A stretch of 6,231 nt of DNA from a virus (lineage: Duplodnaviria > Heunggongvirae > Uroviricota > Caudoviricetes): the IMG/VR virus record IMGVR_UViG_3300029711_000132; one strand, 5' to 3'. The notes below the pieces were generated by a model. That model made no database searches, was not told where the DNA came from, and saw nothing but the letters and a program-made list of their open reading frames with translations. This document shows positions 3,785-6,100 of the stretch, piece by piece. A program made the translations under genes and the position numbers. How positions within the stretch are numbered: the stretch's first letter is position 1; each line of letters starts with the position of its first letter.

Positions 3785-4015
3785 TTAAGCTGCGTTCTTT
3801 TCGGTGTGTGGAAACAACTTCGGAAGATCCGGACGAATCTGGTATGCCTTCACAACTCCACCAGTAGCCGTAACAATGCTGCCGACATGTTCAGGGGATA
3901 CCTTTGCTTTGTTGTGAAGCCACTTATAGACGGCCTGCTGTGAAACTTCGCAGGCATCGCCTAGTTTCTTTTGTGAACCAACGATATTGATCGCTGTTTT
4001 GATTGCTGGGTTCAT
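3785..4015 (-). CDS. cro: Cro-like small HTH regulator (Cro/CI-type, YdaS-like)
   Basis: 76-aa ORF transcribed divergently from the repressor gene, first gene of the early-right operon. GGAGG sits just upstream of the ATG. Sequence LGDACEVSQQAVYKWL is a helix-turn-helix signature. Confidence 0.8.
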   Translation of the reverse strand: MNPAIKTAINIVGSQKKLGDACEVSQQAVYKWLHNKAKVSPEHVGSIVTATGGVVKAYQIRPDLPKLFPHTEKNAA

Positions 4016-4119
4016 AACAACCTCCGCGGTTAATCCGAATCAAGATTAAAACTATGGTTGTTTTTAGTCAACAACCATTTTCGTTTGATGAAATAAAACC
4101 TTGGTTGTACATTTGATCT
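4016..4119. promoter_or_regulatory. OR-like divergent operator/promoter region between cro and cI
   Basis: Inverted repeat ATGGTTGTT-N7-AACAACCAT (4044-4068) plus a related half-site CTTGGTTGTACA (about 4099-4110). Candidate pR on the minus strand: -35 TTGACT (4061..4056). Candidate pRM on the plus strand: -35 TTGATG (4085-4090), 17-nt spacer, -10 TACATT (4108-4113), ending 7 nt before the cI ATG with no Shine-Dalgarno, i.e. a possibly leaderless cI mRNA as in lambda. Confidence 0.55.
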
Positions 4120-4809
4120 ATGAAAACAACACTCTCAGAAAGACTTAAAGAAGCCAGATTAGCGCGAGGCCTTACACAAAAGGCGCTTGGGGATTTGGTC
4201 GGGGTTAGCCAGGCTGCTATTCAGAAAATCGAAACAGGGAAAGCTAACCAAACAACTAAAATCGTGGAGATCGCGAACGCTTTGGGTGTACGCGCAGAAT
4301 GGTTATCTTCTGGCGTTGGAAATATGTCAGACAGTACAGTGCAACCAATACAATCAACTGTCAGCCATTCCAAATACTTCAAAATTGACGTTCTTGATAT
4401 AGAAGTCAGTGCCGGGCCAGGTGTAATCAACCGTGAGTTTGTAGAAGTTCTACGCTCGGTTGAGTACTCGTTTGACGATGCTCGTCACATGTTCGATGGC
4501 AGGAAGGCGGAAAATATCCGCATCATTAACGTGCGAGGTGACAGCATGTCAGGGACGATCGAACCAGGTGACCTGCTGTTCGTTGATATCACTGTTAAAT
4601 CTTTCGACGGTGATGGCATCTATGCGTTTCTGTACGACGACACTGCCCATGTAAAACGTCTTCAAATGATGAAGGATAAGCTGCTGGTTATCTCTGATAA
4701 CAAGAGCTACTCGCCGTGGGACCCGATCGAGAAAGACGAGATGAACCGGGTGTTCATATTCGGTAAGGTCATTGGAAGCATGCCGCAGACGTACAGGAAG
4801 CATGGTTAA
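4120..4809 (+). CDS. cI: CI-like prophage repressor (N-terminal HTH, C-terminal LexA/S24-type autocleavage domain)
   Basis: 229-aa ORF. N-terminus LTQKALGDLVGVSQAAIQKIETGK is an HTH; Ala-Gly candidate cleavage site in EVSAGPG (residues 98-99); catalytic Ser in RGDSMSGTIEPGD and Lys in AHVKRL. Divergent from cro across the operator region. Confidence 0.9.
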   Translation: MKTTLSERLKEARLARGLTQKALGDLVGVSQAAIQKIETGKANQTTKIVEIANALGVRAEWLSSGVGNMSDSTVQPIQSTVSHSKYFKIDVLDIEVSAGPGVINREFVEVLRSVEYSFDDARHMFDGRKAENIRIINVRGDSMSGTIEPGDLLFVDITVKSFDGDGIYAFLYDDTAHVKRLQMMKDKLLVISDNKSYSPWDPIEKDEMNRVFIFGKVIGSMPQTYRKHG

Positions 4810-5038
4810 TTTATCTACGACTTAAGGGAGCGAAGGTTAAGGTTTATACCACTCGGATTAGATATTGCACTAAATTCTCTATAAGAACGCCAAATCTGTT
4901 TGCATATTTCAGTAAATATTCTCGTTGTTAGCTGAGATTTGTTGCTACTGTCAGCAAAATGTCCCCCTATCTCGTAGCGGTTTTTATTTCGAATCATTAT
5001 GTTAAGATGTTTCTGATTATAATGAATGGAAACATAAA

Positions 5039-5419
5039 ATGAGAAAAATCCTAATCGCTGCCATGATGGCATCTGTATTGGCTGGGTGTGCTTCTTCAGG
5101 CAACCAGCAACTCAAAAATGAAACTGAAATTAGTGTCCAGTCTAAACTTCAGGAAGGTAAAACAACCAAGAATGAGGTTAAATCTTACTTTGGTTCTCCT
5201 GATGCTGTTTCATATACTGACAGTGGAAACGAGATCTGGAAGTACGCCTTTGCAAAAGTAAAAGTGAATGGCACCACTTTTATTCCATTCTATGGATTAT
5301 TCCATAATGGAACGAACGGTACGAAAAAAGAACTTACTATTCTTTTTAACGATGACACGATTAAGAAATACACAATGTCAGAAACCCAAATAAACTCGAA
5401 ATCAGGTTGGGCTGACTGA
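5039..5419 (+). CDS. Predicted outer-membrane lipoprotein with BamE-like (SmpA/OmlA-type) domain; accessory gene in the rex position downstream of cI
   Basis: 126-aa ORF. N-terminus MRKILIAAMMASVLAGC has a lipobox (LAGC, Cys17) with Ala at +2, predicting outer-membrane sorting. Mature part EGKTTKNEVKSYFGSPDAVSYTDSGNEIWKY...KKELTILFNDDTIKKY parallels the E. coli BamE pattern GMTQQQVAYALGTPL...NTWFYVF...QQTLTLTFNSSGVL as I recall it. Weak RBS (GGAA about 8 nt upstream); strong terminator downstream. Confidence 0.8.
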   Translation: MRKILIAAMMASVLAGCASSGNQQLKNETEISVQSKLQEGKTTKNEVKSYFGSPDAVSYTDSGNEIWKYAFAKVKVNGTTFIPFYGLFHNGTNGTKKELTILFNDDTIKKYTMSETQINSKSGWAD

Positions 5420-5427
5420 TAATCATA

Positions 5428-5455
5428 CCCGGCAACCGCGCCGGGTTTTCTTTTC
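5428..5455 (+). terminator. Rho-independent terminator after the lipoprotein gene
   Basis: Hairpin CCCGGC-aaccgc-GCCGGG (5428-5445) followed by TTTTCTTTTCC, beginning 9 nt after the stop codon. Confidence 0.7.
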
Positions 5456-5565
5456 CTCCCCCTCATAACTCATACCGTCCAAAAAACCACCACACCTCAC
5501 TTCAGTTATCGCTATGCGATGCAAGTCACAAAATAAATCCATCCTAAATACAACCAGTTATATTA

Positions 5566-5622
5566 AAAACAACCGATAAAACAACTTTTGTTGTTGACGA
5601 TAAAACAACTATAGTTTTAAAT
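5566..5622 (+). promoter_or_regulatory. OL/pL-like operator-promoter cluster
   Basis: Three direct AAAACAAC copies (5566, 5578, 5602) and a palindrome ACAAC-TTTT-GTTGT (5581-5594) share the ACAAC/GTTGT core of the OR half-sites. Candidate promoter: -35 TTGACG (5594-5599), 17-nt spacer, -10 TTAAAT (5617-5622), pointing rightward away from cI as lambda pL does. Confidence 0.4.
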
Positions 5623-5815
5623 AAATTCATCGCAACGACACAACGATACGATAACCACCTGTTTCACCGTTGCGATGACCGCTTAGATCCGCAGTTTGAA
5701 TTTCAGCAGGCTTCGGGGAGTGCGAGGGGTGAAACGGACGCGTGAACGTCGGTGTGACCAGCTGAAATCAACTCAACATTTCATACCTTAGTCGCTTCAA
5801 CGAGGCGGCTTAGTT

Positions 5816-6100
5816 ATGACAACCGGCGGCCATCCACCGCCTGAATACGCGCAGAAGTCTTTATATGTTCAGCAGCCCAGCTTACGGGCAGGAGTTTTTA
5901 TGGTTCATCAACATTACGGAACGCAGACCGTTAATCGCGGTGCGGTCATGCCAGGAATGCTGGTCAAACGCAAAGATGGTACCTGGACTGCATCAGCTAA
6001 TTTACGCGGACGACTTTATCTGCATCGCGGCATTGAGCGCACTTATATACCCGTGACTTGCTCGTGGAAGTTTTTCTCGACGGACGCGGCAACGGTCTGA
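5816..6100 (+). CDS. Hypothetical protein (94 aa) in the position lambda uses for N; no arginine-rich motif
   Basis: Longest ORF in this interval, with a modest GAGG about 11 nt upstream. Composition is not obviously coding-like and there is no homology that I recognise; may be non-coding. Confidence 0.3.
   Translation: MTTGGHPPPEYAQKSLYVQQPSLRAGVFMVHQHYGTQTVNRGAVMPGMLVKRKDGTWTASANLRGRLYLHRGIERTYIPVTCSWKFFSTDAATV

Follow-up and report, generated by a model that had tools for sequence, protein, structure and literature searches.

A BamE-fold lipoprotein carried as prophage cargo beside a lambdoid repressor and its possible role in superinfection exclusion

A lipoprotein gene lies in the rexAB position of a lambda-like immunity region

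The 6,231-nucleotide stretch of viral DNA analysed here (IMG/VR virus record IMGVR_UViG_3300029711_000132, Caudoviricetes; hereafter the window) represents a lambda-like immunity region shown in the cI/PL direction, as found in a prophage, and our subject is a lipoprotein gene that it carries 3' of the repressor. The gene's open reading frame (ORF), at 5039-5419 on the + strand (126 amino acids plus stop), starts 229 nt 3' of the stop region of an S24/helix-turn-helix repressor gene on the same strand. This cI-type repressor (4120-4809, +) matches the Pfam families Peptidase_S24 (1.2e-18) and HTH_3 (5.4e-13) as well as the transcriptional repressor family phrog_4 (8.7e-73), and is the upstream gene of the transcription unit that holds the cargo slot. 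Operator-like repeats mark the two boundaries of the immunity region: OR-like repeats between cro and cI (4046-4110) and OL-like repeats upstream of kil (5564-5620; direct repeat D2). The two tracts are inverted copies of each other (pairs I1, I2, I4 and I8, up to 19 nt at 95%). They enclose both cI and the lipoprotein gene, which therefore occupies the position of rexAB in lambda. An earlier note on this DNA, made from the sequence alone, had placed the gene there, directly 3' of cI on the same strand and behind an AT-rich spacer, and both points hold: within 4800-5400 the GC content is 0.355-0.375, compared with 0.44-0.50 for cI and 0.52 for kil (5816-6100, +; phrog_294, 2e-27).

Escherichia phage PhiR26_1 (PV340555.1) is 99.8% identical over the region, and its record annotates the gene, between cI and kil, as 'hypothetical protein / putative lipoprotein'. 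The prophage of strain Combat11I9 occupies the argU/DLP12 site. Among complete E. coli genomes, 71 of 5426 (~1%) carry the gene, on the chromosome every time. Two minus-strand ORFs that overlap the region (4815-5072 and 5290-5466) are unannotated in both public records and were taken as spurious, and an Rfam scan of the whole window gave no match at E<=1.

The cargo slot runs from the cI stop codon to a backbone terminator

We surveyed the slot by searching E. coli genomes with a query that ran from cro through cI and the lipoprotein gene to OL. Some match was found in 2216 genomes and the whole arrangement in only 58; both flanks were present at 95-97% identity, with the lipoprotein missing, in 15 of 30 evenly spaced sample rows. 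Roughly a thousand E. coli genomes have the same backbone with the slot either empty or filled by candidate defence systems. Three lipoprotein-less prophages were compared in detail. In an ST131 strain (L107), the slot is 122 bp of unrelated DNA with no gene. In strain MB20 (L108), it spans ~1.5 kb and encodes a DUF6932 protein and a 310-amino-acid protein, together the PADLOC candidate system PDC-M63 (A and B), and in an O157:H7 strain (L109) a slot of the same size encodes a 353-amino-acid protein and an ASCH protein, PDC-M11 A and B. Repressors are identical or nearly so across the three, and WP_000858975.1 is common to the window and the ST131 strain with the empty slot.

Homology between the window and these three prophages breaks at 4808-4810, the cI stop codon, and restarts at 5427-5428, the first base of a terminator stem. 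The cargo unit is therefore 4811-5426 (+), comprising the 229-nt AT-rich leader and the lipoprotein gene, and all occupants of the slot fall within the cI transcription unit, ahead of its terminator. Such a placement gives direct architectural support for expression together with the repressor. A moron is recognized as extra DNA of deviant composition; here the breakpoints are exact, GC content is 0.36 against 0.44-0.52 in the flanks, and 4810-5000 matched none of the other fetched loci except those of the same prophage. It is well supported that the gene is a moron (cargo) of a DLP12/lambda-type prophage, in a variable slot bounded by the cI stop codon and the terminator of the immunity region.

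The intrinsic terminator of the immunity transcription unit occupies 5427-5455 (+), with a hairpin at 5427-5446 (dG -14.1 kcal/mol, z = -3.0) and a U-tract. The earlier note had taken it for the gene's own strong terminator, closing a self-contained cassette. Its strength is borne out, but it is the backbone's own, because homology with the gene-less prophages restarts at 5427-5428: it is present in L107 with two compensating stem changes, follows the PDC-M63 and PDC-M11 cargos as well, and is common to all slot occupants. The cassette has no closed 3' end of its own, since the cargo stops where the backbone terminator begins; a promoter-like motif is kept upstream of the gene in most of the loci compared (below). 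The cI-N region is a known hotspot, holding rexAB in lambda and bstA in BTP1 (PMC8585504). The other occupants found here, the candidate defence systems PDC-M63 and PDC-M11 and, in Salmonella phage S107, BstA, agree with the note's view of the rex position as a cargo slot for defence genes.

The product is a predicted outer-membrane lipoprotein with a BamE-like fold

The ATG is preceded, 6 nt upstream, by a Shine-Dalgarno sequence, GGAAA (5028-5032), which is kept in the leader alignment. Against homologues from other genera, the ratio of nonsynonymous to synonymous divergence (dN/dS) was ~0.05 where computable, with dN of 0.10-0.29 and saturated synonymous sites. The only strong PHROG match was phrog_3135, of unknown function (2.9e-48), and a protein database clustered at 90% identity held 228 matches. 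The ORF is confirmed as a real, constrained gene.

The N-terminus, MRKILIAAMMASVLAGC-ASS, has a basic n-region, a hydrophobic core and, as the earlier note had read, the lipobox L-A-G-C at residues 14-17 with Ala at +2. Residues 1-16 form the signal peptide, and the lipidation-site Cys17 (codon 5087-5089), followed by Ala+2 and Ser+3, is invariant across 61 relatives. By the +2 rule, Ala at this position predicts Lol-dependent sorting to the outer membrane. With a BamE/BLIP-like domain spanning about residues 23-122, the product is predicted, with good support, to be a Sec/Lsp-processed lipoprotein that presents a BamE/BLIP-type protein-binding domain in the periplasm.

The note's proposal of a BamE/SmpA-OmlA-like fold was supported by profile and structure comparisons. 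The Pfam BamE profile PF04355 scored 21.8 bits (E 1.6e-4) on the protein, just under its gathering score of 23.2; the same profile matched 52 of 61 diverse relatives at E<0.01 (best 4e-9), and precomputed PF04355 matches are present on many relatives. Aligned to E. coli BamE by hhalign, the family profile gave 88.9% probability (E 2.4e-6). A profile search of Protein Data Bank (PDB) sequences found BamE as its sole match (E ~0.04), with no close relative among the solved structures, and the NCBIfam matches at E<=1 included no BamE-named model. An AlphaFold2 model from 45 sequences had a mean predicted local distance difference test (pLDDT) score of 73, with 80-94 in the core and <50 in the signal peptide and residues 78-90. 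Its architecture is BLIP-like, with two helices packed on an antiparallel sheet. Foldseek against PDB placed BamE chains on top (prob 1.0), and in BFVD the top matches were SmpA/OmlA lipoproteins of Pseudomonas phages. Together, these comparisons support a BamE-like fold for the modelled protein.

The family departs from BamE in an insertion between beta2 and beta3 (codons 78-92, GTTFIPFYGLFHNGT; 5270-5314, +), opposite which BamE shows a 14-column gap in the hhalign alignment. Residues 78-92 are also the most conserved stretch of the protein: entropy is zero over 20 close homologues, I82 and P83 do not vary, and across the whole family the FIP motif is almost invariant. Hydrophobic and aromatic in sequence (FIPFYGLF), this loop is the obvious candidate for a functional or binding site.

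Close relatives recur in two prophage slots within a family that is not phage-specific

Homologues of at least 77% identity, from Salmonella phage S107 and from prophages of Citrobacter and Enterobacter, are each located 3' of a repressor. The repressors beside them vary (155, 240 and 250 amino acids), and so does the cargo between repressor and homologue, which in S107 includes BstA. A species-representative scan of genomes gave 25 Enterobacterales loci that we classified by position. Five lie in immunity regions. Eight belong to tail modules, close to the gene for the tape measure, and the majority of these stand directly between it and the chaperone genes. Serratia and Klebsiella phage RAH1 show the same placement, and tail-slot copies are found in Serratia, Klebsiella, Raoultella, Pantoea and Phytobacter prophages. 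One further locus adjoins gtrABC (L040), one follows tail-fibre genes and several look like non-phage islets. The position between chaperone and tape measure genes is where the HK97 gp15 exclusion moron resides (PMC3594210). Elsewhere, the gene neighbours the integrase of Pseudomonas phage Lodos, and a ParAB contig also carries a copy.

The wider family comprises 1332 clusters at 50% identity (E<1e-3), 309 of them at E<1e-10. Members at 40-50% identity occur in Beta-, Gamma-, Alpha- and Zetaproteobacteria, Nitrospirae and others, with almost no common synteny. In two genomes of Mariprofundaceae (Zetaproteobacteria), a 44-50% identical member sits between nuoN and rpmE-rplU-rpmA-obg and is plainly chromosomal; it could be an ancestral non-mobile form, or that lineage's own BamE. 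The family is thus not phage-specific, a situation that resembles that of HK97 gp15 and YebO. The earlier note had looked for conserved placement beside prophage repressors, and for the close clade in the cI-N region this is what we found; copies also occupy the tail slot, and distant members are chromosomal. Predominantly chromosomal housekeeping homologues, which the note had named as grounds for rejecting its interpretation, do not describe the gene's own clade.

Several small ORFs neighbour the gene in its relatives. In the Serratia tail-slot copies (L018, L019 and L020, 6381-6668), the lipoprotein stop overlaps (TAATG) the start of a 95-amino-acid ORF that has no Pfam or PHROG match and immediately precedes the tape measure gene; this ORF may be a partner co-transcribed with the lipoprotein gene. 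A convergent 68-75-amino-acid ORF of phrog_3975, function unknown, lies just 3' of the lipoprotein gene in the immunity regions from Citrobacter and Enterobacter (L002 4423-4650, L006 6413-6619 and L011 6410-6622, all on the - strand). Salmonella phage S107 has a 75-amino-acid ORF, with no family assigned, at the same position, and the window has no phrog_3975 ORF, only a short similarity remnant after the terminator.

A promoter-like motif is kept at a similar distance from the start codon in most loci

About 45 nt before the ATG accompany the gene, in two unrelated leader types. In the window, the leader holds an extended -10 motif, TGTTAAGAT (TGnTAnnnT; 5000-5008, +), with a predicted transcription start near 5015. 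Type A leaders carry the motif as TGTTA(A/G)GAT and type B leaders as TGCTACCAT. Across 31 homologous loci, TGnTAnnnT begins -38 to -51 from the ATG in 22, compared with 2% of random windows and 7% of shuffled upstream sequences; the loci are related, so these rates do not amount to a probability, although the two leader types are independent. Inside the window the motif is not enriched (11 found, 11.5 expected), and its evidence is therefore only the positional conservation across loci. The motif has no recognizable -35 element, and scanning with the standard two-hexamer model gave no + strand promoter ahead of the gene.

Expression in the lysogen would need such a promoter in S107 and in the Citrobacter and Enterobacter prophages, because there a terminator-like hairpin with a T-run precedes the leader, and likewise for the tail-module copies. 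In L028 and L029, the gene lies ~50 nt 3' of cI with no terminator between. The equivalent position in the window (4925-5000) was considered for an upstream terminator and set aside, as its fold is no better than shuffles (z ~0). A leader hairpin occluding the Shine-Dalgarno sequence was also considered: RNAalifold returned a 4-bp stem only (-0.9 kcal/mol, one compensatory pair), and the idea was dropped for the promoter reading. In the type A leader of the window (4998-5038), TTTCC and the GGAAA of the Shine-Dalgarno sequence flank a perfect 10-bp palindrome, GATTGCAATC; it could be an operator or a weak occluding hairpin.

Further features of the window and of PhiR26_1

Before cI, the window encodes a 164-amino-acid secreted protein (648-1142, -), followed by ren, P (1459-2163, -) and O, then a YdaT/cII-like gene and cro (3785-4015, -). 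The secreted protein falls just short of the threshold for VasI, associated with the type VI secretion system (T6SS; PF11319, 25.5 bits where 26.5 are needed), and strongly matches phrog_1848, a family of unknown function. Its ORF adjoins ren, at a position held by PD-lambda-1 in PhiR26_1 and by emrE/ybcK in Combat11I9, and the site looks like another variable slot for cargo. Within the replication gene P, positions 1941-1995 are 55 consecutive N (masked or unknown bases).

The cro/YdaT-type immunity region resembles that of Rac, and the interval from the OL/PL region to kil (5620-5815) has no gene for an N-like antiterminator. A hairpin with a strong 11-bp stem (5627-5637 / 5668-5678) lies 3' of the putative PL; the fold of 150 nt around it is no better than shuffles (z -0.9), and it has no Rfam match. 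PhiR26_1 (L021, record 15616-47734) carries, in addition to the lipoprotein gene, unusually many envelope morons: an OmpD/NmpC-like porin, Bor, Lom and an OmpT-like omptin.

Superinfection exclusion as the leading, tentative reading

The single most likely function, in our assessment, is that of a lysogen-expressed, envelope-acting superinfection-exclusion factor, a reading drawn from sequence and gene context that we hold tentatively, at somewhat less than even chances. We favour it because the gene turns up repeatedly in two slots used for exclusion or defence, and because candidate defence systems take its place in an identical backbone. The lipoprotein would be expressed in the lysogen by read-through of the repressor transcript and from its own putative extended -10 promoter, which travels with the gene. 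Its FIPFYGLF loop would then bind a conserved component of the envelope that faces the periplasm, and this binding would block an early infection step of superinfecting phages. The proposed logic is that of Llp, Cor, HK97 gp15 and T4 Sp, with a different fold and no tie to the prophage's own receptor.

Several results weigh against exclusion. No family among the PADLOC defence-system models matched the lipoprotein at E<=1, although such models do match its neighbours and the alternative occupants of the slot, and our literature search (PhiR26, BamE or SmpA/OmlA with prophage or exclusion, WP_001226568) found no paper on the family. The gene shows no linkage to the receptor-binding type of the tail tip: Evi, 2B8 and PhiR29_1 have exactly the J C-terminus of PhiR26_1, many Stx phages have it at 98% identity, and all of these are without the gene. 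Prophages whose tails are unrelated carry the gene too, and it was found in a single E. coli phage record. The carrier phage also has envelope morons outside defence (Bor, Lom, the omptin and the porin), and the spread of relatives across distant diderms, some of them chromosomal, fits a general envelope function at least as well.

In the strongest competing account, the protein is a lysogenic-conversion factor with no relation to phages, which would strengthen or remodel the envelope and so benefit the lysogen directly when it meets osmotic stress, detergent, serum or antibiotics; such a role has been proposed for Bor, OsmE and OmlA. We regard this as possible but rather unlikely, for the close clade sits repeatedly in slots otherwise held by exclusion/defence genes, and the gene is in only ~1% of E. 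coli genomes. The BLIP-like architecture raises another account, a periplasmic inhibitor or orphan immunity protein whose loop would plug an incoming enzyme such as a virion-associated or secreted peptidoglycan hydrolase, T6SS effector, colicin or lysozyme. Inhibition of a phage tail lysin would itself amount to exclusion, with T4 Sp as precedent. This account seems improbable to us: no effector or hydrolase is a recurrent neighbour, the structural scores for inhibitors are no better than those for BamE, and the loop that would do the plugging is hydrophobic, aromatic and modelled at low confidence.

Taken at face value, the fold could instead mean that the protein mimics BamE, docking on the beta-barrel assembly machinery (BAM) at BamA-POTRA5/BamD in place of BamE or alongside it and altering the assembly of outer-membrane proteins, hence receptor display or envelope signalling. 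We think this a little less probable still. Identity to E. coli BamE is only ~20%, the BamE N-terminal PDINQGNY is unaligned and a 14-residue insertion is added; the weak PDB profile match (E ~0.04) and the absence of a BamE-named NCBIfam model likewise speak against mimicry, and interference with BAM would probably be costly. That the gene is simply an ordinary second copy of housekeeping bamE is what its RefSeq product name, 'outer membrane protein assembly factor BamE', would imply. This we consider highly improbable, and genomic context effectively refutes it. A functional BamE would be a core chromosomal gene, whereas this one is in few E. coli genomes, within a prophage, and is present or absent in otherwise identical prophage backbones; moreover, the protein scores below the Pfam gathering threshold, differs from BamE in the insertion and the N-terminal region, and belongs to a family that PHROGs gives as function unknown. 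The RefSeq name is probably an over-annotation.

Besides the lack of linkage to a tail-tip type, two features temper the analogy with Llp and Cor and bear on the target. Strong purifying selection together with the invariant, presumed binding loop would fit a conserved host target rather than a fast-evolving phage protein, and the occurrence of 40-50% identical relatives in very distant diderms would fit a universal target rather than a species-specific receptor. This points to BAM, another conserved outer-membrane machine, peptidoglycan, lipid or a conserved enzyme class as candidates. A more specific version, in which a BamE paralogue docks through FIPFYGLF on BAM or another conserved complex and so blocks entry or remodels receptor display, is one we would give a low probability. 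If true, docking on a conserved machine would constitute a new and widespread class of envelope-level exclusion, independent of phage-receptor identity.

The earlier note, which had suggested an undescribed envelope-acting exclusion or BAM-modulating factor, is partly supported overall. We found no description of the family in the literature, as the note had supposed, but RefSeq already names the product. The fold, the moron concept, the hotspot and the 'BamE' label were all known; what is new is a large uncharacterized family of BamE-fold lipoproteins with an invariant loop that is recurrent prophage cargo in exclusion/defence slots. Evidence for a new principle there is none yet. If the protein does exclude phages, it would be a factor untied to any single receptor, with a bearing on host range in phage therapy and on the interpretation of defence hotspots. 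Should it act on BAM or the envelope instead, an antibiotic target would have a natural modulator. Prophages that have this backbone but an empty slot offer clean natural controls.

Comparison with known envelope and exclusion proteins

BamE (SmpA/OmlA) and OsmE share the fold. Compared with BamE, the lipoprotein has the conserved FIPFYGLF insertion and a longer C-terminal strand, and lacks an alignable counterpart of the BamE N-terminal segment; BamE is a core gene, whereas the lipoprotein is prophage cargo in a host that retains its own bamE. BLIP-like inhibitors and the Bacteroides T6SS immunity protein BtiO are 10-18% identical to it, but BLIP is a tandem duplication, and no effector partner adjoins the gene here.

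Among proteins in the same genomic position, lambda RexAB and BTP1 BstA presumably share expression from the repressor transcript (PMC8585504), and in phage S107 BstA and the lipoprotein occupy one slot together. RexAB and BstA, however, work by abortive infection in the cytoplasm or at the inner membrane, a mode not open to an outer-membrane lipoprotein, and show no similarity to it in sequence or fold. The mEpimmI exclusion lipoproteins lie in the structural gene cluster (PMC11893012). HK97 gp15 (YebO family) is a small inner-membrane exclusion protein, unrelated in sequence to the predicted outer-membrane lipoprotein, and its phage copies likewise have chromosomal relatives.

The closest functional parallels would be T5 Llp, a small phage lipoprotein of the outer-membrane inner leaflet that acts from the periplasmic side, according to a preprint (bioRxiv 10.64898/2026.03.26.714494), and Cor of phi80, N15 and HK022, also a small phage lipoprotein acting at the outer membrane from the periplasmic side (PMC3594210). 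Llp and Cor block FhuA and travel with FhuA-using tails, whereas the lipoprotein gene is unlinked to a receptor-binding tail protein. The earlier note had set the protein apart from this pair as larger and differently folded, rightly so: there is no sequence relationship, neither protein appears in the fold-search lists, and the mature lipoprotein is about twice as long. Lambda Bor, which PhiR26_1 also encodes, is likewise an outer-membrane lipoprotein expressed from a prophage moron, but it belongs to an unrelated family, lies in the lysis region and confers serum resistance, not phage exclusion. Prophage outer-membrane lipoproteins thus form a small, well-known class (Bor, Cor and Llp), to which the present protein would add a family of >1,300 clusters with a different fold.
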